Below are positions 22,986-47,909 of a stretch of 64,000 nucleotides of DNA, piece by piece. Position 1 is the stretch's first letter. Every line of letters starts with the position of its first letter. This DNA comes from a virus (lineage: Duplodnaviria > Caudoviricetes), in the IMG/VR virus record IMGVR_UViG_3300023179_000106, positions 1,675 to 65,674 of that record; one strand, written 5' to 3'. The notes under the pieces are model-generated. The model was not told the DNA's origin and did no database searches. It saw only the letters and a list, made by a program, of their open reading frames with translations. The position numbers and the translations under genes are program-made.

Positions 22986-23234
22986 ATGGCGAGGGACATC
23001 GAGTTTCGATCCGAATCCGGCAGGATATTGATAGACGGCGAGCCCTTCGACTGGGGGCTTGACGACGAAGCCATCGAAGAGGCCAACAGGCACGCCGGCA
23101 CGCCTCGCTTCATGAAGGCGATACACAACGACATCATGGGTCACTTCCTTGACTCGTTGTCCGAGGTCTTGGGCTTCAGGCCGTCAATGAAGCAGGTAAA
23201 CGAGGGTCTAGACAGGGGCTTCATATCTAAATGA
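22986..23234 (+). CDS. Hypothetical protein
   Basis: SD AGGAG; coupled to the next gene. Confidence 0.65.
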   Translation: MARDIEFRSESGRILIDGEPFDWGLDDEAIEEANRHAGTPRFMKAIHNDIMGHFLDSLSEVLGFRPSMKQVNEGLDRGFISK

Positions 23235-23761
23235 TACTCATCGATGAGAACGACGACAGGTTCTACATAGCGAGGTCGACACAGCCGGAGGCCGGCAGGG
23301 GGCTGTTCGCGTCGCGCGATATCGAGGAAGGCGACTGCCTAGAGGTCAAAGGGGTGATGGTGGACAAGGGTTCGCCTGCCGACTCCTGCACCGCCTACGC
23401 CGACGCCTTCAAGTTCGCGGCTGACTACGCAGGCGTCTACACCCGCCACATAATACCGATGGGCTACGCGGGCATCGTCAACCACGCCAACAACAAGGAA
23501 GAGCAGAACGTAGAGATCAGGCACATCATGCGCGGAGGCAAGAAGGTCTGTGTGTACCAGTTCGTCAAGCCCGTCGCCGCGGGACAGGAAATCCTCGGGG
23601 ACTACGGCGACGATTGGAGGGGGCTTGACGGGTGGAGCAGGAAGGTGAACGAGGCCTCAGACGAGTCGGAGGAGAGGGAGTGGGCCTCTTTTATAGGGCG
23701 CGGTCTATATAACCTGGACAGGCTCAGCAGGCCGAGGGGGGACGATGCCACAGATCAATAA
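23231..23761 (+). CDS. SET-domain protein-lysine methyltransferase
   Basis: AGRGLFASRDIEEG (motif I), GYAGIVNHA (NHS motif), PVAAGQEILGDYG (GEELxxDY). Confidence 0.88.
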   Translation: MILIDENDDRFYIARSTQPEAGRGLFASRDIEEGDCLEVKGVMVDKGSPADSCTAYADAFKFAADYAGVYTRHIIPMGYAGIVNHANNKEEQNVEIRHIMRGGKKVCVYQFVKPVAAGQEILGDYGDDWRGLDGWSRKVNEASDESEEREWASFIGRGLYNLDRLSRPRGDDATDQ

Positions 23762-27400: not shown

Positions 27401-29676
27401 CCATTCCTACGGCGAGTCTGTTTCCGGACGAGTACGACAGCGACCTCAACCTGTTCCTGGTTAGGGACTCCCTTCGAGTTCGACTTCTCAACGACTACGA
27501 GCCCGGCGATGCGAGCGTGATAGTCGAGGACTACCCCGAGATGATGGACAGGTTCCCTCCGACGGGGATCATCACCCTCACAGAACAATGCAGCGACATA
27601 GACCTGCGGGCGTTGAGCTTCCACTACTCTTCCAAGACATCCACGAGCTTCGACGGCCTGGAGATACTTCCCGAGTTCGCCGCTCTGGACTCCGTGAAGC
27701 CGAAGAAGGCGACGAATGTGACCATGAACGTAGTGGCCATGCACCACAACCACCTCAAGGACTCGCTGGTGGCCATACAGGGCAACTTGGGGACAAAGTA
27801 CACAACCGACAGGGAGACCATAACCGGCAGGATAAAATATCTGGAGGGCCTGGCATTCCGTCCGAAGGCGTGGTTCTCCGCCAGCACGCCGATAGGACTC
27901 GCCCCGCTTTCGGTCACCTTCAAGAACGAGAGCTTCAGGCTCGGCCCGTCGGCCGTGACGCACACATGGGACTTTGGGGAAGGAAATCCGGTGACCTTCC
28001 AGACGGCGAACCAAAGCGAGTACGAGAGCTACGAGGGCGTCATAGACGGTGTGCAGATAAAGGGATCGACCCTCACGAAGGTCTATTCCACCCCGGGCAT
28101 TTACACCGTGTCGCTTATCATGAGCAACGAGTGGGGCGATAGCGAGGTCGCATTCGAGGACATGATAACGGTCAAGACAGAGTGTCCCGAGGAGGCCTCG
28201 ATAGTCATAAACGCTAGGTCGACGCAAACATACACGGACGGCGATCCCGCGCTCGGCACGCGCCCGAAGATACGATCCGTGGCGAACAGCTTCGTGGACT
28301 TCGAGGTTCCGTACGGAAACGACCCCTCCAGAAGCGGATTCTCCTACGCGGGGGAACTCTTGGAGCTGACGAGCAGCTCGAGCATGTTCGGAAGCCCAGT
28401 CGACCCTATCGTGGAATACACATGGAGCCTCGGCGATGACCTGCCCCATTCGAATTCGGCGTCCGCTCGAGCCTCTTACGGAATAGGAGGGATATACGAC
28501 ATAGTGCTCCGCGTCGACACGAGCTTTGGGTCGTATCGCATAACGAAGTACGAAGGCTCTGTCGACATAGTCGAATCAAGGAACCTCTGGCTTTTCAAGT
28601 TCGATTCAGAAGGCTACAGCGGAGCGGTTAAGGCATACGAGTTCGGGCTCGACAGCGAGACTTTCAAGCTCCTCGGAAACCAGACCATATCAATAGACAG
28701 GAACAGAGAGTTCCTGGACGTGTATGTAGGGGCGGCATACGACTCGTCCACGCGGTCGCGGGCGAGGAGCGAGTTCGAAAGGAACACCGAATTTGTGCCG
28801 TACGGAAGCCTCAGCTCCGGCCTGCGGGGCAATTCAATGTTGTTCTGGGCGAAGGGTGGATCTTCGCAGGATTCGGCGCAGATCGGAGTGGCAAAATACA
28901 ATGCCTTCGACGATCAGTATGAGTCGTTCAGTTCCATATCAGGAAGGCCGTGGAACTGGGTGGCTCTGAACTCTCCGGACAAGACTTACTTCCTTTTCGG
29001 AAGTGCGAACCAGTCCCTGCCGAACACCAACGCGTCGACGGCCTTGCGGACGGACTACGACCTTCCGAGCCATTCGGTGACATCGTCGTCGGCTCTGGAC
29101 TCGTCGTCGTTCGGCAACGGCGCGGACGAGCTTCTTGAGCATCCGTCATACTTCGAGAACGGTGTGCCGACCAATGGGTATTTCGCGACGTACAGGTCTG
29201 CATGGAAGGATTCGGTGGGATACATACTGCGCAACTCGGCGGTGAACGAGTTCTTCCGCATCTCCAGTTTCTACAAGACCGTCGGAAGCGTATCCACGCC
29301 ATTCAGCACAATCACGAAGTTGATCGACATGACTGGCACGGCCAAGACCGAGGGTCGACTCGTAACAATGTCGAACGGCATATTCTTCTTTGGCAACTCC
29401 GGCGAGGTGAGCGCCTGGAACGACACCACGATGACATGGGAGGTCGGACGCACGGGGTCTGCGTCGCTGACCTTCAGGTCGGTACAGGACACCGCGGCCT
29501 CCGGGTTCGACGAACGTTCGAATACGCTTCTTGCCTCTTCGGACGGGGATCGGGTCGCGTACCTGAGTTATGACTACAGCAACAAGGCGTTCGTGAAGTT
29601 CAACGGCACGGACTTGACGTTCTCGATGCTGAAACAGCGCCCCGCCGGCTCTCAATTCAACATGGGGGTGTACTGA
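27397..29676 (+). CDS. PKD-domain fibre/receptor-binding-like protein (paralog 2)
   Basis: GLAPLSVTFKNES..TWDFGEG..YSTPGIYTVSL, a second PKD and a beta-rich C-terminus. Confidence 0.8.
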   Translation: MTIPTASLFPDEYDSDLNLFLVRDSLRVRLLNDYEPGDASVIVEDYPEMMDRFPPTGIITLTEQCSDIDLRALSFHYSSKTSTSFDGLEILPEFAALDSVKPKKATNVTMNVVAMHHNHLKDSLVAIQGNLGTKYTTDRETITGRIKYLEGLAFRPKAWFSASTPIGLAPLSVTFKNESFRLGPSAVTHTWDFGEGNPVTFQTANQSEYESYEGVIDGVQIKGSTLTKVYSTPGIYTVSLIMSNEWGDSEVAFEDMITVKTECPEEASIVINARSTQTYTDGDPALGTRPKIRSVANSFVDFEVPYGNDPSRSGFSYAGELLELTSSSSMFGSPVDPIVEYTWSLGDDLPHSNSASARASYGIGGIYDIVLRVDTSFGSYRITKYEGSVDIVESRNLWLFKFDSEGYSGAVKAYEFGLDSETFKLLGNQTISIDRNREFLDVYVGAAYDSSTRSRARSEFERNTEFVPYGSLSSGLRGNSMLFWAKGGSSQDSAQIGVAKYNAFDDQYESFSSISGRPWNWVALNSPDKTYFLFGSANQSLPNTNASTALRTDYDLPSHSVTSSSALDSSSFGNGADELLEHPSYFENGVPTNGYFATYRSAWKDSVGYILRNSAVNEFFRISSFYKTVGSVSTPFSTITKLIDMTGTAKTEGRLVTMSNGIFFFGNSGEVSAWNDTTMTWEVGRTGSASLTFRSVQDTAASGFDERSNTLLASSDGDRVAYLSYDYSNKAFVKFNGTDLTFSMLKQRPAGSQFNMGVY

Positions 29677-32543
29677 TGGCTGTCGGATATCCCCCGAGAC
29701 CAGCGTTCCCTATTTCCCTAGATTCCGATCGCACCCTGTATTTGGTCTACAACACGAGTGAGGCCAAGACCACTTCCGAAAACGCTCCGTGGCAAGAGGA
29801 GATCGAAATAGTTCCGGTCGGCCCCGGCGACCTAGAGATATGGGCGGACAACGGGTTTGCCAACATATCTGGAGAGTTGTTCTACTACGACTCCGTGGAC
29901 AAAGACGAGAACGGCAAGGTGTTCAGGCTCAAGCGTTGCGCCAGAAACCTAGGGGGGAAGCAGACCAGGTTCAACCCTTCGGGCACGTGGGTTCGCGGCT
30001 TTGTCATAGCCGAACACCACAATCAGTTGGTGGACGCCACGATAGCCACCCAAGCGTACATATTCGACCTTGAGGAAGACCTTTCGGCGTTGGAGGAGGA
30101 GACCCCATGCCTCGACGACTCTCCATGCGTCGACGCACAGATCGAAACCGAAGTGGTAGACCCTAACCCGCCGAATTGTGCAGGAACGGTGGTCAGCTAT
30201 TCGGTGACGATCAACGGAACATTCAACAATTTTGTGTTGGACTTCGGAGACGGCCAGTCGACCACTTCTAGCCTTTCTGGCCTGCACACTTACAGTCCGG
30301 GGGCAAACATAGATCCCGTCCTAACCGTGTTCAGCGATTCTTGCACGGTAGTCCAGACCCCTCGAGAACGAGACAGGGACGAAGTTCCAGATTCCCCTGC
30401 GCCAGACGAGCCCACCCTTACTGTTCCGGAACTGTGTCTTTTTCCGACTATCAACATACCGACGCTGGAGGTGCCCTCGACGACTGTGGAGGTGCCCCCC
30501 ATCGTGTTCCCCTGTCTCAATCTGGCGCCTAGCCTGAATCTGCCGAGCATAATCAGCATAATCCCGCCAGAGATATCGATTGTTCCGTTCAGCTTTACGC
30601 CCATAACCATAAGTTTCGGCCCGGCTCCATTCATATCGCCAAGTTTCACCTTCGGACCGGCTCCGACCATACCGCCGGTGTCGTTCACCTTCGGTCCCGC
30701 TCCGGTGGTAACGCCGGCCTCCTTCATTTTTGGGCCGATGTCGTTCACTTTCGGTCCGGCTCCGACCATACCTCCGGTGTCGTTCACGTTCGGGCCTGCT
30801 CCAAACATACCGCCGGTGTCGTTCAACTTCGGCCCCGCTCCGCTGATACCGCCGGTGTCGTTCAACTTCGGCCCGGCTCCGACCATCCCTCCGGTGTCGT
30901 TCAACTTTGGCCCGGCTCCGACCATCCCTCCGGTGTCGTTCAACTTTGGCCCTGCTCCGCTGATACCGCCCGTTTCTTTCAACTTCGGTCCGGCCCCGAA
31001 AGTCGAACCCGTGCAGTTCACATTCGGCGCTGCTCCGAAGGTCCAGCCTGTCGAGTTCACATTCGGCGCTGCTCCGAAGGTCGAACCTGTGTCGTTCAAC
31101 TTCGGCCCGGCTCCGAAGATATCGCCTGTGTCGTTCAGTTTCGGCCCGGCTCCGAAGATATCGCCTGTGTCGTTCAGTTTCGGCCCGGCTCCGAAGATAA
31201 CGCCTGTGTCGTTCAGTTTCGGCCCTGCTCCGAAGATATCGCCCGTGTCGTTCAGTTTCGGCCATGCTCCGAAGATATCGCCCGTGTCGTTCACATTCGG
31301 CCCTGCCCCCGTGGTGTCGGCGACTTCGTTCACATTCGGCCCTGCCCCCGTGGTGTCGGCGACTTCGTTCAGTTTCGGCCCTGCTCCGAAGATATCGCCC
31401 GTGTCGTTCAGTTTCGGCCATGCTCCGAAGATATCTCCCGTGTCGTTCACATTCGGCCCTGCCCCCGTGGTGTCGGCGACTTCGTTCACATTCGGCCCTG
31501 CCCCGAACGTACAGAGTTCCTTCGAATGGGGACAGCCGCCGAAGATAGATGGCTCTTTCACATTCGGCACGGCGCCCAAGGTGGGAGGATCGTTCACATG
31601 GGGGTCTCCGCCGAAGGCAGGAGGGTCGTTCACATGGGGTACGGCCCCCAAGGTGGGAGGGTCGTTCACATGGGGGTCGCCACCGAAGATAGACGGATCC
31701 TTCACATGGGGTCAGCCGCCTCAAATTGGAGGTTCGTTCACTTGGGGCGAGCCACCCCAGGTCGGGGGTTCGTTCACATGGGGCGATCCTCCCGCGATAC
31801 AGACATCCATAGATTGGGGCGAGCCTCCTGCGATTCAGGCGTCGATTGACTGGGGAAATCCCCCGAAAATACAAATCGACTGGAGCGACCAGCCAACCAT
31901 TTCCTGCGTAGTTTCCGTCGAATGCCCCTCAGGAGGATCCGGGAGTTCTGGGCAGCCGTTCAGGAGGAACATGACTCTCGACGACAACTTCGTCGACGAT
32001 TTCAATACCGACGACTTTGAGATAGAGATAGGCAATCTCGGTATACCTTCCGAAATCAAGGTCGTGGCTCCCAAGTTCCCGGACATAAAGGTCGTGCACG
32101 ACATGCCCGAGTTCATAGAACTCAAGTCGGACATCCCGAGCAGGATCATAGTGTACCAGGCCGACGTGCTTCCCAAAGAAATAAAGATCGTGTCGGAGTC
32201 GATACCCGACACGATCGCCGTAGACGCCTCTTCTGTTCCGAAGTCTATAGTCATGGACGCCTCCGCCGTTCCTAGCTTCATAACGGTAGTGGCTCCGGAC
32301 CTGCCGTCCGTCATAAAACTCGACGGCTCGGGAGTCCCCGATTCGATCAAGGTCTTCGGGATACCCGACTCCATAGAGGTTCGCATGCCCAGCGAGATAG
32401 TGGCCCGACTGGAGGTCCCAGAAAACCTCGAGGTGCCACTCGTATACAGAGGAGACCCTGTGCCGGTGAGGTTTGACGCATCGGTGATATCCGAATCGGG
32501 CGAGCAAATGTGCTTCGCTTTGGTCCCTTGCGGCAAGAAATGA
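29676..32543 (+). CDS. PKD-like fibre protein with a long Pro-rich repeat stalk (paralog 3)
   Basis: Shared N-terminal module, LDFGDG..HTY PKD-like domain, and about 30 FGPAP/WGxPP repeats. Confidence 0.8.
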   Translation: MAVGYPPRPAFPISLDSDRTLYLVYNTSEAKTTSENAPWQEEIEIVPVGPGDLEIWADNGFANISGELFYYDSVDKDENGKVFRLKRCARNLGGKQTRFNPSGTWVRGFVIAEHHNQLVDATIATQAYIFDLEEDLSALEEETPCLDDSPCVDAQIETEVVDPNPPNCAGTVVSYSVTINGTFNNFVLDFGDGQSTTSSLSGLHTYSPGANIDPVLTVFSDSCTVVQTPRERDRDEVPDSPAPDEPTLTVPELCLFPTINIPTLEVPSTTVEVPPIVFPCLNLAPSLNLPSIISIIPPEISIVPFSFTPITISFGPAPFISPSFTFGPAPTIPPVSFTFGPAPVVTPASFIFGPMSFTFGPAPTIPPVSFTFGPAPNIPPVSFNFGPAPLIPPVSFNFGPAPTIPPVSFNFGPAPTIPPVSFNFGPAPLIPPVSFNFGPAPKVEPVQFTFGAAPKVQPVEFTFGAAPKVEPVSFNFGPAPKISPVSFSFGPAPKISPVSFSFGPAPKITPVSFSFGPAPKISPVSFSFGHAPKISPVSFTFGPAPVVSATSFTFGPAPVVSATSFSFGPAPKISPVSFSFGHAPKISPVSFTFGPAPVVSATSFTFGPAPNVQSSFEWGQPPKIDGSFTFGTAPKVGGSFTWGSPPKAGGSFTWGTAPKVGGSFTWGSPPKIDGSFTWGQPPQIGGSFTWGEPPQVGGSFTWGDPPAIQTSIDWGEPPAIQASIDWGNPPKIQIDWSDQPTISCVVSVECPSGGSGSSGQPFRRNMTLDDNFVDDFNTDDFEIEIGNLGIPSEIKVVAPKFPDIKVVHDMPEFIELKSDIPSRIIVYQADVLPKEIKIVSESIPDTIAVDASSVPKSIVMDASAVPSFITVVAPDLPSVIKLDGSGVPDSIKVFGIPDSIEVRMPSEIVARLEVPENLEVPLVYRGDPVPVRFDASVISESGEQMCFALVPCGKK
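30610..31880 (+). repeat. Coding tandem array of 39-bp (13-aa) units grading into 36-bp (12-aa) units
   Basis: FGPAPxIxPVSFx grades to FTWGxPPKVGGS and then IDWGEPPAIQxS; includes a 156-bp higher-order duplication (about 31221 vs 31377). Confidence 0.95.
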
Positions 32544-33391
32544 GAGTAAAAAGGACAAAGAACAACGAGTTCGTGCTTGAGGAGGGGGTTTGGATTAGAA
32601 ATCCCTTTTCGGGCTCTAGGCCACTGGACATCAACTCTCTTGCCAAGACCGAGTCGTCCCTTTTTCTGCGCAACGAGTTCGAAAATCTCCGGCGCCCGTA
32701 CATGCAAATGGATGAGGCTCTTGATTTGACCATGGAGAACGTGGTCATAGTTTCGGACGGATACGGTTGGGACGAAAGGCAGTTGGCGCTCGGGTCGCTC
32801 CCCAACAAGCAAGTCAAGGTTCTTGGCGTGAACGGAAGCCTGGCGAGGTGGGGCATGGTTGGCGACTCTGCCCCGACCAAGAGGACGATGACCTTCTATG
32901 TGGTGAACAACCCCTATCCTGAATGCATGGGGTATCTGCCGAGGAAGCACCGCTACTACCCGAATCTGATCGCCTCGACGAGAACCTTCCCGCGTTTTCT
33001 TCAGGAGTACCGAAACGAGCCGTACATGTACCGCCCAACTCAAGATTTGGACTTTTCGGGGGCGGGCTTCGCGGAGGTGAACTCAGTGATTGACGACTAC
33101 AGGAACCCCATTTGCGCGGCCATAAGCGTCGCCGTCAAAAGGGGAGCCAAAAAGATCGCCCTTATGTGCTGCGACGAGTCGTTCAAGGACAGTCGGCCAG
33201 GGGCCGACAGGATGCCAAACGGCCTGTACCAGTACCCCCAGCAGGCCAAGTGCCAGAAAATTATCGACAAGCAACTTTTTTGGCTTCGTTCGGCGGGCAT
33301 CGAGGTGGCGGATTGCTCTTCGGGCTTGGAAATGAAAAATGCAAGATATATAGATGTTGAGGGTTTGCCAAAGTTTTTTGAAAGGATTTAG
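32540..33391 (+). CDS. Divergent Maf/CstII-like glycosyltransferase-fold protein
   Basis: VVIVSDGYG..VLGVNGS..ICAAISVAVKRGAKKIALMCCD resembles the IIxxGPS..A..hG.K.I.L.G.D pattern of Maf/GT42-like proteins. Confidence 0.5.
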   Translation: MRVKRTKNNEFVLEEGVWIRNPFSGSRPLDINSLAKTESSLFLRNEFENLRRPYMQMDEALDLTMENVVIVSDGYGWDERQLALGSLPNKQVKVLGVNGSLARWGMVGDSAPTKRTMTFYVVNNPYPECMGYLPRKHRYYPNLIASTRTFPRFLQEYRNEPYMYRPTQDLDFSGAGFAEVNSVIDDYRNPICAAISVAVKRGAKKIALMCCDESFKDSRPGADRMPNGLYQYPQQAKCQKIIDKQLFWLRSAGIEVADCSSGLEMKNARYIDVEGLPKFFERI

Positions 33392-33392
33392 A

Positions 33393-33677
33393 ATGGTAGA
33401 CTTCAGACATCTGAACCCGGACGACTTCAGGCGCTGGATCAAAAATAAAGAAGACAAAGAAGATACGGACGCTTGGATGGTGGGCCGTAAGGTCGACCCG
33501 AAGTTCTGCGGAAAGAAAACCGCAAGGAGCATTTCGCTGGAAAGCGGCAAGGCAGGGAGAGTGGTTCGCGAGTTCGTTCAGGCAGGTGGCGTCATAAAGT
33601 CGGTCTGCGGCGATGAGGTTTTGGTCGAGGTCGACTCGGGGTCTTTCTATATCTGCAAGAAGAAGGTCATCTTTTGA
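33393..33677 (+). CDS. Hypothetical protein
   Basis: ATG 33393 right after the previous stop; SH3-like C-terminus. Confidence 0.6.
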   Translation: MVDFRHLNPDDFRRWIKNKEDKEDTDAWMVGRKVDPKFCGKKTARSISLESGKAGRVVREFVQAGGVIKSVCGDEVLVEVDSGSFYICKKKVIF

Positions 33678-34035
33678 GGCTTGAGGCCCTTCTCATCATG
33701 GTAGACTTTTCAGTTACGACGGAGTCTTTGTTCAGCCCGGTGGAAGGAACATATCCGTTGAATTGACTCATGGGCAGGTTTGTGTAGCCCCGCTTTCTGA
33801 GGGCGCTCTTGAGCTCCTCGAACGACATCGCTGACTCCGCGTAGAGTTCGTGGGTCATCTTGTTCGCGTGACATTCGGAGTTTACCTTGTGGGCAAGCCC
33901 TCGCTCCAGGCCTAGCGATCCCACGTCGCGAACTCGCGTGGGATAGACCTTCATGTGGCTTTCGAAGGCTGTCACGACATCTATTCCCTTTTTGTCGAGG
34001 CGAGCGAGGTATATGTAGACTCTACTCTTTTTCAC
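33667..34035 (-). CDS. Hypothetical protein
   Basis: GTG start 34035 after GGAG (MKKSRVYIYLARLD). Confidence 0.55.
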   Translation of the reverse strand: MKKSRVYIYLARLDKKGIDVVTAFESHMKVYPTRVRDVGSLGLERGLAHKVNSECHANKMTHELYAESAMSFEELKSALRKRGYTNLPMSQFNGYVPSTGLNKDSVVTEKSTMMRRASSLKR

Positions 34036-34207
34036 CCATGAGCTCCCGAAAAAATTCTTCAAGTACGATTGAGGCGTGGGCGTCGATTGTTCCGAACTGG
34101 CCGAAGAATGCCTCAAGGGCGTCCGCGGCGTCTTTTTCTTCCCCGTCTCCGTTTTGCCCCTGCATGACATATATAAGGGACGAGCGGGGCAAAAAGAGAG
34201 GGATTCC

Positions 34208-34753
34208 ATGAGCGTTTTTAGGGTGAGGCTGAGCAACAGCAGGCAGGGCCTTTTGGACATCTACGACAACCAGAGAACGGCCTACATAATGGGTCCGAAC
34301 CGAATCAACAGGAGGCTGAAGGACGGGGAGGTCTTCACGGACTGCAACTACTGGAAGCGCTTCGCTCATCCCAACTTGCCCCTCGAAGAGGCGTTCATAG
34401 AGGTGGTGGAGGACGACGGCACAATATACAGCGACCAGATACGGGACAACACATACCCAAAGGTCTACGACATATCGGCGGCAGCCGGCTCCGGCTTTGA
34501 AGACAACCGGGCGGACATAGCGGGCGACTCCGGCAGTTTCGCCCTGTTCGCACAGATCACAAACAAGGGTTCGGAGTCGATCAGGGTTCGGATCAACGGG
34601 CTCGACAGTGCGATCATAGACCTGCCGGGCGGGGCGACCCAGACCTTCGCGGTCGGCGATCTTACGATAGGCCTCATAGAGGTGGCGAACCAGTCGGAAG
34701 AGACCGTGGATGTGCAGATAGTGGTGTCCGTCAGGGTCGCGTCCACGAGTTGA
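34208..34753 (+). CDS. Hypothetical beta-rich protein
   Basis: ATG 34208 after GAGGG; CATATATAA upstream. Confidence 0.7.
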   Translation: MSVFRVRLSNSRQGLLDIYDNQRTAYIMGPNRINRRLKDGEVFTDCNYWKRFAHPNLPLEEAFIEVVEDDGTIYSDQIRDNTYPKVYDISAAAGSGFEDNRADIAGDSGSFALFAQITNKGSESIRVRINGLDSAIIDLPGGATQTFAVGDLTIGLIEVANQSEETVDVQIVVSVRVASTS

Positions 34754-34790
34754 AAAACCTGTCTCGGCCACTAATTTATCAGGGGGGCGA

Positions 34791-35009
34791 ATGCCTAATT
34801 TGATCAAGCAGGGCGAGGCCAGGGTGGTGACGAAGAACGGAGAGGTCTTCGTCAACATCTCTCTTGAATTGAACATCAAGCTGGAGGGCGTGTCCGGAGT
34901 CCAAGGATTCTCGCAGGCCGCAGGAGCGACGACGGCTTTGCCCAACGAAGACAAGGTGAACTGGGAGATACCCGACTTCGCCCCTGGAAAAATAGATTTC
35001 GGAAAATGA
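34791..35009 (+). CDS. Small hypothetical protein upstream of the actin-like gene
   Basis: SD-like AGGGGG; stop 10 nt before the ATG of the actin-like gene. Confidence 0.6.
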   Translation: MPNLIKQGEARVVTKNGEVFVNISLELNIKLEGVSGVQGFSQAAGATTALPNEDKVNWEIPDFAPGKIDFGK

Positions 35010-35019
35010 GGTGTACAAA

Positions 35020-36039
35020 ATGAGGATCGGATTCGACTGTGGCACTTATCATCTGGTGAGCTGCAAAAGGGGCGAGGACAACGCCTTGTCGTACAAGAAA
35101 GAAGTTAACGCTTTCCTTCAGATGCCGTTGGACAACCGCTTCGTCTTCAACATGATGAAGAACGCGGGAGTCCCTTTGATCGAGCAGCCAGAGGCCAACG
35201 TGGGCTACGCCCTAGGCGAGGCTGCCGTGAACATGGCCTACACTATGACTCAAATCGAACTCAAGAGGCCCATGAAGGACGGATGCCTCAACCCCAAGGA
35301 GAAGCACGCCCAGCAGATAATGAATGTCATGTGCCACAGCCTCATAGGCGACGTGGACGAGGACGGCTCCCTTCTGTACTACTCGGTTCCCGCGAACGCC
35401 ATCAACCAAGAGACCGACGCCGACTATCACGGCAAGGTGTTGGAGGCGATGTTCAAGTCATACAGAAGCGAGAAGGGATACCGCGTGGAGCCTCACCCCA
35501 TCAACGAGGCCTTGGCGCTCGTGTATGCGGAACTGCAGGGCAAGGCTTGGACGGGCGTGGGGATCAGCTTCGGGGCCGGAATGGTGAACCTCTGCTATGC
35601 CATGTACGGGGCTCCGATATTTCAGTTCTCCCTGGTGAACAGCGGCGACTGGATCGATAAGATGGCGTCCAAGGCCATCGGAGAGGATACGACCACCTAT
35701 GTGAACAGGGAAAAGATGCACGCCGACCTGACCGTGGAACACCCGGAGACCCTGGTCCAGAGGGCCATAAAGTCCCAGTACGAGATAATGATCCAGCACA
35801 CCGTGGCGGGCATCAAGAAGGGCGTCGAGGAGGCGGGCAACAAGGCTCGATCCGAACAGCCAATAGACATCGTCATAGCTGGCGGCACGAGCATGCCGAA
35901 GGGCTTCGACGTTCTGTTCAGGAAGATACTCGAGCAGGCGAAGATAACGAACATGAAGATCGGGGAGGTGATCCGCCCGGCGGATCCGCTATTCTCGGTG
36001 GCGCGCGGCTGCCTGATCGCCGCAGAAAACGCGAAGTAG
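35020..36039 (+). CDS. Actin-fold ATPase (MreB/ParM/FtsA superfamily)
   Basis: IGFDCGT (phosphate 1), INEALA (connect 1), GISFGAGMVN (phosphate 2), VIAGGTS (adenosine), DPLFSVARGCL (connect 2). Confidence 0.88.
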   Translation: MRIGFDCGTYHLVSCKRGEDNALSYKKEVNAFLQMPLDNRFVFNMMKNAGVPLIEQPEANVGYALGEAAVNMAYTMTQIELKRPMKDGCLNPKEKHAQQIMNVMCHSLIGDVDEDGSLLYYSVPANAINQETDADYHGKVLEAMFKSYRSEKGYRVEPHPINEALALVYAELQGKAWTGVGISFGAGMVNLCYAMYGAPIFQFSLVNSGDWIDKMASKAIGEDTTTYVNREKMHADLTVEHPETLVQRAIKSQYEIMIQHTVAGIKKGVEEAGNKARSEQPIDIVIAGGTSMPKGFDVLFRKILEQAKITNMKIGEVIRPADPLFSVARGCLIAAENAK

Positions 36040-36055
36040 AAAGAAAGGAAAGAAA

Positions 36056-36274
36056 ATGAAGAAGACTGTTAGCGACTTGGGGGCGGGTGCGTACCTGCTC
36101 ATGCACGGCCACAAGGTTGTGGGCAGGAGAGGCCGGGACTTCATATTTGAGGTGGCCGAGCACGAGGATTCGGAGTTCGAGCAGAGAAAGTTGGAGTACC
36201 TCTCCAGCGAATTCCATCGGTTCGACTCGTACATCATGTCCCTCAAGAAGATTGGGGAGTACAACCCGGAATGA
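36056..36274 (+). CDS. DUF5659-like small protein
   Basis: TVSDLGAGAYLLMHGHKVVG..FIFE pattern. Confidence 0.55.
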   Translation: MKKTVSDLGAGAYLLMHGHKVVGRRGRDFIFEVAEHEDSEFEQRKLEYLSSEFHRFDSYIMSLKKIGEYNPE

Positions 36275-36666
36275 GTCCGAAGGGGCTGGAGTACTTCGTC
36301 GGCAAGGTGTGCACGGTCTTCACCGTGCCCATCAACAGGGACTTCAAGTCGGAAAATCCCCAGACCTTTCCCCAGCCGGTGTTCCACTACTTCGTGGGAA
36401 AGGTTCTGGAGGTTGGGAGCCGCGGGGTGGCCCTCGAGCAGTGGAACAGCGACAAGAAACTCAGAACTTTCTTCTTCGTCGACCACATAGTCGCCATATC
36501 AGAAGAAGAAATCCTCGATCCTTCGAACCCCAAGGACAGGGCGCTCATAGAGGACTACAAAAAGACCAGCGAGGCGTCCGTGGGCGAAACAAAGGAGAAG
36601 GCATCCGAGGAGGAGGCCTGCAAGTACGTCGACATCAGGCAGCTCACGGAACTTTCGTCCAAGTAG
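36271..36666 (+). CDS. Sm/LSm-like fold protein
   Basis: VGKVCTVFT..FVGKVLEVGSRGVAL..FFFVDHIVAISE. Confidence 0.5.
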   Translation: MSPKGLEYFVGKVCTVFTVPINRDFKSENPQTFPQPVFHYFVGKVLEVGSRGVALEQWNSDKKLRTFFFVDHIVAISEEEILDPSNPKDRALIEDYKKTSEASVGETKEKASEEEACKYVDIRQLTELSSK

Positions 36667-37716
36667 TCAGCATATGCCGTTCAGGCCGAGTCTGGTTCCC
36701 TCCCAATCGCCCCCCGCCACGGTTTCGTAGTCTCTCTCTTGGCTCTTTATGTACTCGGCCAATATTCTGGAACCCTTTGCGACGAGCAGGCCGTTCCAGT
36801 CCTTGTATTCGCGGCTAGGTCTTACGTAGCGTATCGTCTTGAACTTGTTCTTTTGGAGTTTTTGAGCGATGCGGGGCAGGGCTTCGGCGCCCGCTTCGTC
36901 CGCGTCAAGGCAAAGAACCGGGTTCGTTCCGACCAACATGGCGACCTGTTTGTCCGTCATGTTCTTGCCCCCGAGGGCGACCGATTTGAGGCCGCACAGG
37001 TCCAAGGAGATCGAGTCCATCTCTCCCTCCGTGATGTAGACCTTTTCGCCGGGAGATGGCCAATCTCGGCAGTAAAGGACATCGCCCTTGCCGATGCCCA
37101 ATTCTTTCGGAGGCCCGAGATACCGCAGGTTGGTGCCCGGATCGCCGATGTACCTGCCGTTGTAGTAAATGAGCCTTCCCTGACGATCTCTGTACGGGAT
37201 CATTATTCGGTTCCTGTACCTTCCCGCGGTGCATATCATCAGGCCGGCCGTGGGAATTTTCCTCAAGGCGAGGTATTCTTCGGCCTGCGATCGGAGCCTG
37301 TGGCTGGAAGGCAGGTCGTCGAAGAGGTAGCAGTCTGGGGGCATGTCGAGAGATCCTATGGGCTCTCCCGTTGGCGTCTGATTTTCTTCCGCTCTGCCGG
37401 CGAACATGTCGTTCACGCGTTTCTCGAGATCCTCGAGGCTCCCTTCGGACACGGCGCCGAGCGCCTCGACAGCCTGCTCGTACGAGCAGTTGTCCACGAT
37501 CATTACGAGTCCGACGAGGCTTCCCTTCTTGTCGGACTTCCAGCAGTGGTAGACGCCCGACTTCGACCCTGTTTTTCCTCCCGAGGGGTTGCACCAGAGG
37601 TGCCTCTTTCGGTCTTCGCAGAAGATGGAATTGACCTTTATTTCGTCTCCGCTCACCACGGCGTCGCCGAGCCTGGACTCCGCCCAGTCTAAAAATCTAT
37701 CGAAATCTATTGACAT
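36667..37716 (-). CDS. DNA primase (DnaG/gp61-like, Zn-finger remnant plus TOPRIM)
   Basis: YHCWKS; RIMIPYRD..YYNGR..RYLGP; VYITEGEMDSIS..LCLDADEAG..KDWN. Confidence 0.88.
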   Translation of the reverse strand: MSIDFDRFLDWAESRLGDAVVSGDEIKVNSIFCEDRKRHLWCNPSGGKTGSKSGVYHCWKSDKKGSLVGLVMIVDNCSYEQAVEALGAVSEGSLEDLEKRVNDMFAGRAEENQTPTGEPIGSLDMPPDCYLFDDLPSSHRLRSQAEEYLALRKIPTAGLMICTAGRYRNRIMIPYRDRQGRLIYYNGRYIGDPGTNLRYLGPPKELGIGKGDVLYCRDWPSPGEKVYITEGEMDSISLDLCGLKSVALGGKNMTDKQVAMLVGTNPVLCLDADEAGAEALPRIAQKLQKNKFKTIRYVRPSREYKDWNGLLVAKGSRILAEYIKSQERDYETVAGGDWEGTRLGLNGIC

Positions 37717-37782
37717 GTTCGCTCTCCAAGCCGTATGATACTTCGAAGACTAGAAAATGGCAATTCCGCCCTCTATCACCTC

Positions 37783-38583
37783 ATGAACATCGAGCACATA
37801 TCCGTGTCGAGGGGCAAGTCCTATAGGCAATGCCCATACTACTACAAACTCAAGTACCACGACAAAATACCTAATCCGGGCGAGGAGCAGTTCTATTTCG
37901 TCTACGGCAAGATAATCCACAAAATAGCCGAATGCCACGTGGCAGAGGAGGGTGCCAGGAGCATCAAGGAGATATCCAAGGAGGTGCTTGGCGGGAAGAT
38001 CGAACTAGAGCACGGGAAGTTCGCGCCTCCTTTGCCGCCGGAGTTCAGAAGTCGTCTGCCGGGGCATCTCAAGGCCTTGGAGAGGCTCAACAAGAAGATC
38101 GGATGCTCCGGAATCACGGAGCACAAATTCAGGTACGACCTGGAGATCCCCAACTGCAAGTATGTGACGGGTTTTATCGACCGTATCATACTGAAGGAGG
38201 GCAAGGCGTGGATAATCGATTACAAGACCACGAAGAAGGGCCCGTTCAGGGAGGATAAGAAAACCATCAAGTACGACCCCCAGCTTCGGATCTATTCCAG
38301 GGTCGTGCAGAAGGAGTTCGGGATAGATCCGAAGGACATCAGGGCCGCGTTGTTCTACCTTGAGGACGAGGAGATCATAGACGCTTCGTACTCGGAGGAG
38401 TCTCTGGAGGCGGCCGAAAGAGAACTTCTGGAGTTGTACGACTCTATAAGCTCGCACCGGGCCGAAGACGCCAGGGGAATAACGGGACAGCACTGCAAGC
38501 GGTGCGAATACAGAGACATGTGCCCCTTCTTCAAGAACAGCCAGAGAAAGGTCTATTGGAACGGCGACCTGTCGTCTCTCTGA
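37783..38583 (+). CDS. PD-(D/E)XK RecB/Cas4-like exonuclease
   Basis: S.S..Y.QCP, GKIIH, GFIDRI..IIDYKT, QLRIY, CKRCEYRDMC (four Cys, Fe-S type). Confidence 0.88.
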   Translation: MNIEHISVSRGKSYRQCPYYYKLKYHDKIPNPGEEQFYFVYGKIIHKIAECHVAEEGARSIKEISKEVLGGKIELEHGKFAPPLPPEFRSRLPGHLKALERLNKKIGCSGITEHKFRYDLEIPNCKYVTGFIDRIILKEGKAWIIDYKTTKKGPFREDKKTIKYDPQLRIYSRVVQKEFGIDPKDIRAALFYLEDEEIIDASYSEESLEAAERELLELYDSISSHRAEDARGITGQHCKRCEYRDMCPFFKNSQRKVYWNGDLSSL

Positions 38584-47128: not shown

Positions 47129-47156
47129 ATTCTAACAAAATCTAAGCCGCTGTCAA
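47129..47156 (-). promoter_or_regulatory. Sigma70-type promoter
   Basis: TTGACA-N16-TAGAAT on the minus strand. Confidence 0.7.
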
Positions 47157-47623
47157 CGTCTTCCTTCAAGCATCTCCAAGATGTTGTCGGCGTCCGCTCG
47201 GCTGTCGAGAATCTGGTCTTCCAGGAACAACGCGACATACATCCCGTCGACGGAGTCCTCGGGCGACGAGGCCGCCAGCTCCTCGGCCTGCGCATGGCGC
47301 AGGACGTAGTTCTGCACGACTTGATCTTCAAGCGCCAGCGCGGAACGGAGGATTTCCGCTGGGTCCGACGACTTGACCTGAAATTCCCCGACGGCACTGG
47401 GGACTGACGGGTCTAACCCGCGGCGGGTCGCGATGCCGTGAATCAGCCTGCGGAACTGTTCGATGTGCTTCATTTCCCCGGAGGCCTGCTCCAGGAAGAA
47501 CTCCGACATTTCTTCGCGGTGCAGGCCACGCACGGTGGTGGCGGCCTGCATGTAGAAGTGCCAGTGTGCGTACTCATTCGCCAGGTCGACCTTCAGGAGG
47601 CCAACCATCTCGTCAATCTTCAT
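47153..47623 (-). CDS. Ferritin/bacterioferritin-like protein
   Basis: DLANEY..FY..FLEQASGEMKH..ALALEDQVVQNY four-helix bundle pattern. Confidence 0.8.
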   Translation of the reverse strand: MKIDEMVGLLKVDLANEYAHWHFYMQAATTVRGLHREEMSEFFLEQASGEMKHIEQFRRLIHGIATRRGLDPSVPSAVGEFQVKSSDPAEILRSALALEDQVVQNYVLRHAQAEELAASSPEDSVDGMYVALFLEDQILDSRADADNILEMLEGRR

Positions 47624-47909
47624 TTTCAATGTCCTTTCTTGGGCTGAACTTGGGCTCTCCTTGTCCGTCGAAGCCAACTATGCTGACCGAGCCGGACAAG
47701 AAATTCTTCCACAGTATTTCGCCGATCCTAACGGATCCGCACCACTGTATGACCTTGAATATGTCGTCCAGTTCTTTGATGTCCTGGAGTACGCATGCGG
47801 CGATTATGTCGTCCATCTCCTCGCGCGAGAGAGAAACATACTTGCCCTCCTCCTCGCACCAGTGGAGGTCGTCGGCGGGTATGATGTTGTTGATTACGTA
47901 TTTATACAT
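47613..47909 (-). CDS. Hypothetical protein
   Basis: Start MYKYVINN after AAGGG; overlaps the ferritin start. Confidence 0.55.
   Translation of the reverse strand: MYKYVINNIIPADDLHWCEEEGKYVSLSREEMDDIIAACVLQDIKELDDIFKVIQWCGSVRIGEILWKNFLSGSVSIVGFDGQGEPKFSPRKDIENED

Follow-up and report, generated by a model that had tools for sequence, protein, structure and literature searches.

Introduction

Do bacteriophages with genomes of half a megabase build an actin cytoskeleton of their own? To our knowledge, the phage-built cytoskeletons so far are the tubulin PhuZ of nucleus-forming jumbo phages and one actin, AlpC, of a small prophage. The question is raised by a run of genes at positions 34208-36666 of a 64,000-nucleotide stretch of viral DNA, which we call the window and which covers positions 1,675 to 65,674 of IMG/VR record IMGVR_UViG_3300023179_000106. 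An earlier reading from the letters alone (hereafter the sequence-only reading) had described this run as a phage actin-like ATPase operon with small partner genes. No published account of huge-phage volactin actins was found in the literature searched, and no actin homologue is mentioned in the passages searched of PMC7162821, PMC7824862, PMC13282480, PMC12619734 and PMC9123017, the supplements of which may list such annotations.

The phage and its relatives

The window comes from a huge freshwater phage, with a genome of about 0.5 Mb, which carries T4-type head genes. CheckV puts the completeness of the 65.7-kb record at 13%, which gives an estimated genome of ~500 kb. Pfam matches to Portal_T4 (4.1e-77), Gp23 (5.5e-85), Peptidase_S77 (2.1e-28) and Terminase_6N/6C (TerL) establish the presence of the T4-type core gene set in the window, namely the gp20 portal, the gp21 protease, the gp23 capsid and a gp17-type terminase. 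The description of this virus as a T4-like phage is therefore apt for its head, portal and terminase genes, but not for its size, which at ~0.5 Mb is far above that of T4.

Five near-complete relatives of 430-595 kb were available, and each of the five encodes exactly one actin, while a Pfam Tubulin match was found in none of them (0/5). In a comparison with LR756511.1, the actin is less conserved (60% identity) than the major capsid protein (78%). The GC content of the window is 57%, and the base composition of the relatives varies widely, including AT-rich upstream regions, so that their hosts are probably diverse. Matches of 64-65% identity occur in metagenome-assembled genomes (MAGs) from three unrelated phyla, one of them on a 546-kb contig; we read these matches as mis-binned phage, and no host can thus be inferred from the MAGs. 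The two strong DNA data-set matches for 34208-36666 are lake-water or freshwater metagenomes, one of them possibly the origin of the record itself, and no RNA data sets covering these positions were listed. IMG/VR calls two related records 'provirus'; no IMG/VR relative was found for P0126.

A compact gene run converging on primase

The genes at 34208-36666 are closely spaced, making up a single unit that centres on a volactin-family actin and lies between the tail-fibre module and the head module. Its features, with those of its immediate surroundings, are as follows:

34168..34175, + strand, promoter-like octamer CATATATA, 33 nt 5' of the first ORF of the run
34208..34753, + strand, 181-aa conserved protein (g181), first gene of the run, present in 74/80 actin loci
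34791..35009, + strand, u72, 72-aa partner and candidate filament adaptor (52-sequence alignment, synteny)
34950..35006, + strand, u72 tail, residues 54-72, DKVNWEIPDFAPGKIDFGK, proposed docking peptide and the most conserved stretch of the family
35020..36039, + strand, volactin-family actin (PF25216), 339 aa; 342 aa if read from GTG 35011, where the longest ORF begins
36056..36274, + strand, d72, 72-aa small alpha/beta protein, weakly DUF5659-like, present in 77/80 loci
36271..36666, + strand, d131, 131-aa protein, overlapping the d72 stop by 4 nt in the window
36667..37716, - strand, DnaG-type primase, convergent, given as context (Toprim_2 E 1.3e-15; phrog_47 DNA primase E 9e-40)

The five tightly spaced ORFs on the + strand (34208-34753, 34791-35009, 35011/35020-36039, 36056-36274 and 36271-36666) converge, as had been noticed earlier, on a DnaG/Toprim primase encoded on the opposite strand. 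No terminators lie between the genes of the run on the + strand; the terminator search returned four, against 4.7 expected. The motif CATAWATA occurs six times in the window, compared with an expectation of 0.55, and 0/100 shuffles reach six; all six sites lie 4-32 nt 5' of the ATG start of an ORF that is 60 aa or longer. We take this octamer to resemble the T4 late promoter. In many relatives, TATATAA or CATAAATA-type octamers are found just 5' of the 181-aa gene and of the u72 gene. A repeat search of 33300-37800 agrees with the earlier remark that centromere-like repeats are absent: it returned only short, low-identity pairs, and the largest direct repeat families have three members of 17-19 nt, which are 74-89% identical and dispersed within coding sequence. 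As for the first gene of the run, the g181 family counts 1327 proteins, all annotated as 'hypothetical' and without a Pfam domain, with a dN/dS of 0.14-0.16 and a GC3 of 0.80.

The central gene encodes a volactin-family actin

Judged by its profile match, which runs over the full length of the family model, the product of the central gene truly has the actin fold and belongs to the volactin family (PF25216). It scores 212.5 bits against the Pfam Volactin profile (cut-off 35; E 1.4e-62; positions 1-321 of 321), and the value is 212.1 bits when the record is searched in six frames. The only other Pfam family listed for the ORF at E<=0.1 is MreB_Mbl, at 21 bits and hence under its cut-off of 27; no match to ParM/StbA appears there. 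The likelier start is ATG 35020 rather than GTG 35011, because database homologues start at the former. An alignment of 58 sequences shows that the residues of phosphate-1 (D6/G8/T9), E163, phosphate-2 (G179/S183/G185/G187) and the adenosine motif (G288/G289/T290) are invariant or near-invariant: D6, G8, G185, G288, G289 and G330 are fully invariant, and T9, E163, S183, G187 and T290 nearly so. The phosphate-1, connect-1, phosphate-2, adenosine and connect-2 motifs of the actin fold, all five of which the sequence-only reading had recognised in the 342/339-aa ORF, are borne out, together with the four-subdomain fold, by the full-length PF25216 match, by this alignment and by the AlphaFold2 (AF2) model described below. 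Most actins carry Asp at the phosphate-2 position occupied here by Ser; the alignment reveals Ser across the volactin family, archaeal members included.

The search for homologues returned 1648 proteins, or 840 representatives after clustering at 50%. The best 120 of the 1648 are 66-100% identical to the query, all match PF25216, and they lie on contigs of up to 634 kb. The gene is under strong constraint (dN/dS 0.02-0.06). All seven long homologues (7/7) carry an intein with a LAGLIDADG endonuclease within the phosphate-2 loop, a choice of insertion site that is typical of indispensable active sites; the presence of inteins in the nucleotide loop of some homologues is thus one more indication of an important active site.

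Phylogenetic placement was obtained from a tree of 92 rows, consisting of 90 volactin-family sequences and two MreB (quick search under LG+G4, with SH-aLRT values and no bootstrap). The volactin family is split from MreB at SH-aLRT 100. Nested within this family, 23 rows make up the phage clade, which forms one side of a branch with SH-aLRT 96. Branches within the phage clade are short (0.1-0.2, versus 0.5-0.8 elsewhere), and the four archaeal rows form a clade of their own (SH-aLRT 99).

The AF2 model of the actin is of high confidence (pLDDT 94.6, pTM 0.92). Its best Foldseek match is MamK (5ljv_A, E 1.7e-16, TM 0.71), followed among others by BeeR (8r2n_A, 2.0e-14) and MreB (1jcf, 4.7e-14). 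All matches listed, to rank 50, are MamK, BeeR, MreB/Mbl or eukaryotic actin and related proteins, with no kinase or Hsp70 among them. Sequence identity to the MreB-type structures, MamK and BeeR is 14-18%, and a phmmer search of the PDB at E<=1 returned no relative, bar one chance match. The predicted structure supports the assignment of this protein to the filament-forming branch of the ASKHA superfamily. In the tree the protein is placed within the volactin family, and its nearest folds are those of filament actins, not of kinases or Hsp70.

The upstream partner u72 is specifically coupled to the actin

Directly upstream of the actin lies the gene for u72, noted previously as a 72-aa ORF ending in WEIPDFAPGKIDFGK. 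This ORF is real, and the 52-sequence alignment identifies its tail as its most conserved part. The family opens with a conserved N-terminal module of ~33 aa that looks like beta structure and ends in a conserved C-terminal tail with the pattern W-x-IPDF...K-x-x-FGK, the two being joined by a variable linker. In the tail, F63, F70 and G71 do not vary, and W58, P61, K67 and K72 are at least 90% conserved. Homologues of u72 are 70-85 aa long and almost always encoded directly 5' of the actin; a longer or fused form is represented by one 163-aa protein on a 1-kb contig, which is weak evidence for such a form. The dN/dS of u72 is 0.23, and no Pfam or PHROG family matches it. The full-length u72 profile has a single match per genome in 5/5 near-complete relatives (E<=1), and a tail-only HMM finds no second copy of the tail in the window.

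Among 80 actin-seeded loci, u72 was found in 71. In the reciprocal direction, starting from u72 homologues and counting only the 75 loci with enough flanking sequence, the actin is located downstream in all (75/75), with a gap of <=60 nt in 66 of them, and inserts are common on either flank of the pair. Of the operon with small partners proposed by the sequence-only reading, this upstream coupling is the part that stands, while d72 and the ORF at 36271-36666 are more loosely associated; among the small neighbours, specific coupling to the actin is limited to the upstream u72 gene.

With HMMs of u72, d72 and g181, no match was obtained next to the more distant volactin genes (9/9) or in four further phage loci. 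In other phage volactin lineages, an upstream ORF on the same strand ends, by eye, in a short basic ...L-K-G-(G)-K in 3/4 loci. A single look-alike ORF, at locus L085, was rejected as not significant (hhalign probability 4.6% over 13 columns).

The downstream neighbours d72 and d131

The AF2 model of d72 has a pLDDT of 94.6 and the order b-a-b-b-a-a. In the PDB this fold has no convincing counterpart, the best E from Foldseek being 0.53 and the best Z from VIA wide 4.7. Most relatives are tandem: 38/60 distinct homologues have 147-188 aa and represent a tandem two-domain form. The gene is highly constrained (dN/dS 0.03). Its product had been called DUF5659-like, and this label survives as a weak likeness of the family, resting on three leads: weak matches to PF18903 (DUF5659) in 4/29 members (best E 0.0072), two Atlas clusters (scores 0.88 and 0.86) in which 30% and 37% of members carry DUF5659, and a DUF5659 protein at rank 2 of a BFVD search (E 0.07, TM 0.50). 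The window protein itself has no match to PF18903 at E<=1. Clusters of d72-type DUF5659 proteins are widespread in viruses. Variable inserts separate d72 from the actin, and hairpins precede d72 in distant loci.

The last ORF of the run, d131, was seen in 45/80 loci, in six of which, those of the closest relatives, it lies on the same strand as the actin, and in 39 on the opposite strand. In these 39 loci d131 adjoins the primase gene wherever the primase is also seen; by its gene neighbourhood, d131 belongs with the primase. Its earlier description as Sm-like is not upheld, since 0/26 members match the LSm/Hfq Pfam families at E<=1 and all leads are sub-threshold: Phage_Hfq at rank 28 of the Atlas search (score 0.84), a RimP SH3 domain at TM 0.45, and Atlas structure matches at TM 0.45-0.50, where no family exceeds the threshold. 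The g181 protein and the DUF5659-like neighbour may be part of the actin system.

A proposed actin-based system

The conserved actin gene, with the tailed partner gene just 5' of it, makes a phage-built actin cytoskeleton probable in this group. We estimate at roughly 60% the probability that the volactin-family actin forms filaments which, together with u72 as adaptor, organise or move a large cargo in this ~0.5-Mb phage. During infection the phage actin would bind nucleotide and assemble in the cell into dynamic filaments, like those that archaeal VolA forms in vivo. The C-terminal peptide of u72 (W-x-IPDF...K-x-x-FGK), carried on a flexible linker, would dock on the actin, and the N-terminal module would hold a cargo or an anchor, so that the system could organise or move something large, such as replicating DNA, capsids or an assembly site. 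ParR has the same layout, its C-terminal peptide docking on the ParM filament. We infer a positioning or trafficking role for the phage actin, as the sequence-only reading had proposed. Against this mechanism, the Pfam and repeat searches turned up nothing that would point to a cargo, be it a DNA-binding domain, a membrane anchor or centromere-like repeats.

A broader scheme is tentative and, on balance, rather doubtful. Half-megabase phages without a detectable tubulin might possess a volactin transport of their own, in which the C-terminal peptide of a 72-aa adaptor connects the actin to a phage cargo, such as the genome, a procapsid or an assembly site, and lineage-specific adaptors bear similar short basic tails; this would be a counterpart of the PhuZ spindle, with ParR-like docking reinvented in lytic phages.

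Alternative explanations

Three other explanations deserve consideration, each with a small and about equal chance of being correct. According to the first, the actin acts alone or with unlinked partners, and its small neighbours are adjacent through inherited gene order only. Within one clade of generally conserved gene order, the linkage of u72 and actin could be due to inheritance rather than function, and u72, d72 and g181 are indeed confined by HMM to this clade; the wide occurrence of d72-type DUF5659 clusters in viruses, the variable inserts between actin and d72 and the hairpins just before d72 in distant loci fit the same explanation. However, the u72-actin junction stays closed (gap <=60 nt in 66/75 loci) although both flanks take inserts, the combination of variable linker and conserved terminal peptide is what marks a docking motif, and a tailed upstream ORF is also found in other phage volactin lineages. 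We regard purely inherited adjacency as improbable.

Segregation of the ParMRC kind is given a similarly low probability. Here the phage would be a low-copy extrachromosomal element (a pseudolysogen or plasmid prophage), and the actin with its adaptor would push sister genomes apart from a centromere. The layout of actin plus small adaptor does resemble ParM/ParR, two related IMG/VR records bear the 'provirus' label, and Salactin, a haloarchaeal actin, aids DNA partitioning according to passages of PMC10869688. No repeat array lies near the genes, though, neither u72 nor d72 belongs to a recognisable DNA-binding family, the actin has no ParM (StbA) Pfam match at E<=0.1, and the genes, which follow a late-promoter-like motif, have the tail-fibre module on one side and the head module on the other.

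It is just as unlikely that the system serves to take over the host, the actin reshaping or enlarging the cell or disturbing MreB, FtsA or the divisome, and u72 being a regulator or a mimic of a host tail peptide. The C-terminal peptide of FtsZ binds FtsA, an actin-fold protein, and the u72 tail has a P-x-F core in common with the FtsZ C-terminus of a bacterial MAG (...TPTFMRRKAD); this likeness amounts to three residues, and because only the P-x-F core is shared, FtsZ-tail mimicry is a rival of low probability. Volactin affects the cell shape of H. volcanii, as stated in passages of PMC10869688, but copolymerisation with host MreB is unlikely given the identity of only 14-18% to MreB-type structures, and the widely varying base composition of the relatives, from which diverse hosts are inferred, argues against a single host target.

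Finally, a kinase-like or Hsp70-like role, in which the protein would keep the actin fold but act as an ASKHA enzyme or chaperone without polymerising, is very improbable: the phosphate-2 Ser in place of the usual Asp could be taken to favour it, but this Ser is family-wide and found in archaeal members too, the Foldseek matches listed are filament-forming actins and related proteins without a kinase or Hsp70, and the family includes a protein that forms filaments in vivo (VolA, in passages of PMC10869688).

Implications

Were the proposed filament and adaptor system to prove correct, a single-copy actin under constraint, together with an adaptor of its own, would be carried by a widespread clade among the largest phages known, and an actin cytoskeleton would be part of the infection cycle in viruses of bacteria. 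The volactin family, hitherto studied only in one archaeon, would thereby be extended to viruses. The 339-aa actin and its 72-aa partner constitute a small two-gene unit that is directly expressible and imageable.

Comparison with known systems

The closest studied protein is volactin VolA (HVO_2015) of Haloferax volcanii, for which passages of Schiller et al. (2024; PMC10869688) describe dynamic filaments of VolA-msfGFP. The phage actin matches the same PF25216 family over its full length and shares its set of motifs, with GISFGAG as the phosphate-2 loop, the two belonging to one family that is clearly apart from MreB. It differs from cellular volactins in being only ~30-34% identical to them, and the phage clade scores 193-245 bits against PF25216, compared with ~410 for archaeal members. 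Unlike VolA, it is encoded not by an archaeon but by a virus of bacteria-like GC content. Archaeal volactin loci contain tandem paralogues with a membrane protein between them, whereas the phage locus has a 72-aa tailed partner. The role of VolA in cell shape is not transferable to the phage actin. In structure, MamK, BeeR and MreB provide the nearest solved folds, yet they are just 14-18% identical to it.

The type II partition system ParM/ParR/parC offers an analogy in that an actin-fold NTPase lies beside a small protein whose C-terminal peptide possibly docks on it. The phage locus differs in having neither a StbA/ParM Pfam match nor centromere repeats, and its partner is encoded upstream, not downstream, and lacks a recognisable DNA-binding fold. 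A phage actin-like protein tied to viral DNA replication, together with an adaptor, is described for AlpC/AlpA of prophage CGP3 of Corynebacterium glutamicum (PMC4446434). AlpC is of a different actin family and comes from a small temperate prophage, compared with the 0.5-Mb phage here. PF25216 has no match in a C. glutamicum control genome, a result relevant to AlpC only if that strain bears CGP3.

The PhuZ proteins of jumbo phages belong to the tubulin family. The protein described here has an actin fold in place of PhuZ's tubulin fold, and Pfam Tubulin is matched in 0/5 near-complete relatives. As a functional analogy, we propose that it may resemble the PhuZ spindle of nucleus-forming jumbo phages (Chimalliviridae) in being a filament built by a very large phage itself.

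The gene run and its actin

The actin ORF starts at GTG 35011 (342 aa, the longest ORF) or, more likely, at ATG 35020 (339 aa), and belongs to a run of five closely packed plus-strand ORFs that meets a primase gene on the minus strand, as the sequence-only reading of an operon converging on primase had it.

Genes of the run and the facing primase (window coordinates)
34208-34753, plus strand: g181, ORF of 181 aa, first of the five
34791-35009, plus strand: u72, ORF of 72 aa, putative upstream partner of the actin
35011/35020-36039, plus strand: actin, ORF of 342/339 aa, Volactin family
36056-36274, plus strand: d72, ORF of 72 aa, weakly DUF5659-like
36271-36666, plus strand: d131, ORF of 131 aa, last of the run
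36667-37716, minus strand: DnaG/Toprim primase, head-on against the five ORFs

Successive ORFs are separated by 37, 10 and 16 nt and the last two overlap by 4 nt, with no terminator-like sites on the plus strand between the genes of the run. All five ORFs are under purifying selection relative to close relatives, with dN/dS values of 0.02-0.06 for the actin, 0.03 for d72, 0.08-0.16 for d131, 0.14-0.16 for g181 and 0.23 for u72, ratios that are rough because dS is saturated (>1). A repeat search of positions 33300-37800 found no centromere-like repeats, in agreement with the earlier impression. Note also that the start of g181 is overlapped by a minus-strand ORF of 197 aa (33667-34260) that is retained in 54 of the 80 loci; judged by eye, its likely start is an internal GTG near 34032 (~121 aa), which would leave a divergent intergenic region of 175 nt.

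Pfam Volactin (PF25216), the family of VolA of Haloferax volcanii, matches the actin along the full length of the model (E 1.4e-62; 212.5 bits against a cut-off of 35); MreB_Mbl gets 21 bits, under its cut-off, and no further actin-type Pfam family matched at E<=0.1. PHROGs held no family for the protein, and phmmer found no solved relative. The actin-fold motifs first recognized by eye are upheld by a 58-sequence alignment, in which the expected residues are conserved (D6, G8, T9, E163, the GISFGAGMVN loop and AGGTS). An AlphaFold model of high confidence (pLDDT 94.6, pTM 0.92) has the MamK filament as its best Foldseek match (E 1.7e-16, TM 0.71). The other top matches are to the BeeR filament, MreB and eukaryotic actins, and identities, that to MamK included, are 14-18%. 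Clustering with non-polymerising ASKHA enzymes, which had been named as one outcome that would speak against a cytoskeletal protein, was not observed: the fold matches are polymerising actins, and neither a kinase nor an Hsp70 is among the matches listed (ranks to 50). The identity of the ORF as an actin is secure (probability of about 0.97), and its family and predicted fold argue that the protein probably polymerises.

An intein splicing domain was found in all seven long homologues tested (500-731 aa; proteins P0121, P0128, P0130, P0133, P0134 and P0140, and contig ORF L088:3644-5782), accompanied in six of them by a LAGLIDADG homing endonuclease. The intein site falls within or close to the phosphate-2 nucleotide loop in the Volactin profile, whose N-terminal match breaks at 172-179 in the clearest cases and at 146-194 overall. 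Inteins typically sit in indispensable active sites, so their presence at the nucleotide loop would be consistent with the actin being an active nucleotide-binding protein. To our knowledge, inteins have not been reported in proteins with the actin fold.

Distribution among huge phages

A word-indexed search retrieved 1648 actin homologues, the best 120 of which are 66-100% identical, all carry PF25216 and lie on contigs of up to 634 kb, while an exhaustive search gave 840 cluster representatives at E<=0.001. The phylogeny that had been proposed as a check (92 rows including two bona fide MreBs; quick search under the LG+G4 model, no bootstraps) places the actin inside the volactin family, which is separated from the two MreBs with an SH-aLRT of 100. 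The phage clade, with 23 labelled rows, forms one side of a branch with support 96, and four archaeal rows form a clade of their own (support 99); branches within the phage clade are short, 0.1-0.2 vs 0.5-0.8 elsewhere in the tree. Three phage-clade contigs binned into metagenome-assembled genomes (MAGs) of three unrelated phyla are read as mis-binned phage. Scores against the PF25216 model are ~410 bits for archaeal proteins, 320 for a Desulfobacterales MAG, 274 for an Omnitrophota MAG and 193-245 for the phage clade, and on these scores the phage protein can be taken as a divergent but unambiguous member of the family. Archaeal and Omnitrophota MAGs (loci L090, L093 and L089) carry two tandem volactin paralogues, some with long N-terminal extensions, and in the archaeal tandem loci a membrane protein of ~320 aa lies between the two.

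The source virus is a huge phage: CheckV puts the completeness of the 65,674-base IMG/VR record, of which the window covers 64,000 bases, at 13%, so that the genome is estimated at ~500 kb. The label of a T4-like phage holds for the head module, which comprises a T4-type portal, a gp21-type protease, a gp23-type capsid protein and the large terminase, and not for the phage as a whole; baseplate and PKD-domain fibre genes are also present. The closest GenBank record is the uncultured phage LR756511.1 (595 kb; capsid protein 78% and actin 60% identical). Together with relatives of 430, 527, 533 and 572 kb, of which the 572-kb one has terminal repeats, it makes up five near-complete genomes, each with exactly one volactin gene and none with a Pfam Tubulin match. 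Two lake-water or freshwater DNA runs contain the stretch, and one of them may be its source; no RNA run contains it.

In the product of the portal gene (52371-54872), residues 153-328 form an intein splicing domain that precedes the Portal_T4 match. Elsewhere in the window are encoded a SET-domain protein (23231-23761, E 2.3e-06), a ferritin-like protein (47153-47677, E 1.1e-11) and, on the minus strand at 2-1351, an ORF that runs off the window edge, with 450 aa read, and whose GGAVRD motif presumably marks a tRNA nucleotidyltransferase or poly(A) polymerase-type enzyme. A 955-aa protein with no Pfam match (29676-32543, array core 30734-31459) closes the tail-fibre/PKD module and is made up largely of PVSFxFGPAPxIx-type repeats of ~13 residues, with GGSFTWGxPPKx units after them; TRF reports a period of 39 nt, 18.6 copies and 82% matches, with flanking arrays of period 36/72. 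Phage fibres do not usually have FxFG-like repeats of this kind.

The neighbours of the actin

The upstream 72-aa ORF noticed at first is real and specific, as shown by family conservation and by linkage to the actin. The u72 family (52 aligned sequences) begins with ~33 conserved N-terminal residues, continues with a linker that is variable and of low complexity, and closes with a conserved C-terminal peptide; there, F63, F70 and G71 do not vary, and conservation is at least 90% at W58, P61, K67 and K72. By tblastn, u72 is found in 71 of the 80 IMG/VR loci fetched with the actin, some of the misses being in truncated loci, and almost always ends just 5' of the actin. Reciprocally, 77 loci were fetched with u72, and a same-strand actin lies downstream in all 75 that have at least 600 nt of downstream DNA, at a distance of <=60 nt in 66 and 66-798 nt in the other nine; the two samples share many contigs and are not independent. 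The g181-u72 and actin-d72 distances vary by up to ~2 kb across the 80 loci, which makes the u72-actin junction the one that resists insertion.

The gene is single-copy in the five large genomes, matches no family in Pfam or PHROGs and occurs in no informative longer form, and no second protein with its type of tail was found in the window. Filament adaptors such as ParR combine a folded head with a flexible linker and end in a short, conserved peptide. Since u72 shares this layout, we infer that it may be a filament adaptor; that it is a direct partner of the actin is plausible, at roughly even odds. Other phage volactin lineages, 29-33% identical to protein P0124, were inspected by eye at four loci: in three, an upstream same-strand ORF, directly adjoining the actin in one of the three, ends in a short basic ...L-K-G-(G)-K, an echo of the ...K-I-x-F-G-K end of u72. 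On L085, a sister-group contig, an ORF overlapping the actin start has a u72-like layout, its match being non-significant (hhalign probability 4.6%). Otherwise, HMMs of u72, d72 and g181 found nothing beside distant volactin genes at nine of nine loci.

Of the two downstream genes that had been placed in the actin operon, d72 is found with the actin in 77 of 80 loci and may belong to its system. Tandem two-domain forms of d72 (147-188 aa, taken as longest ORFs) make up 38 of 60 distinct homologues. The d72 model is confident (pLDDT 94.6, order b-a-b-b-a-a) and has no convincing solved fold; its DUF5659 likeness goes back to three weak leads. In distant loci a hairpin lies just 5' of its purine-rich ribosome-binding site, and d72 is thus not always co-transcribed with the actin. 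The first gene, g181, occurs in 74 of the 80 loci; its family counts 1327 proteins, none of them named. We take d131 out of the module because it shares a strand with the actin in no more than the six closest loci and, in the other 39 where it was seen, lies on the opposite strand, adjoining the primase gene where that too was seen; moreover, its proposed Sm-like nature was not confirmed, with no Sm or Hfq family in any of 26 relatives scanned and Atlas leads below threshold.

A candidate promoter motif

The octamer CATAWATA occurs six times in the window (57% GC) vs 0.55 expected (~11-fold), a count that none of 100 shuffles reached. Each site (1360, 34168, 40540, 45252, 46707 and 56275) lies 4-32 nt 5' of an ORF-opening ATG, that at 34168 being placed 33 nt upstream of g181, and some leave no room for a Shine-Dalgarno sequence. 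In relatives, TATATAA / CATAAATA-type octamers are found a few bases 5' of both g181 and u72. CATAWATA, which we take to resemble the T4 late promoter, is a candidate phage promoter motif.

Comparison with known systems

The tubulin PhuZ is a known phage cytoskeletal system. So is AlpC/AlpA of prophage CGP3 (PMC4446434). The volactin of H. volcanii is described as an actin that appears to be essential, assembles into filaments showing dynamic instability and has an effect on the change from rod to disk shape; no mention of viruses was found in the accessible part of that description (PMC10869688). Nor was an actin homologue of huge phages found in the accessible main-text literature on volactin and on huge or jumbo phages, a 2026 review included. 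Phage-encoded cytoskeletal filaments are already known as a kind; the variant here is a volactin-family actin that has a putative tailed partner of its own and is shared throughout a clade of the largest phages.
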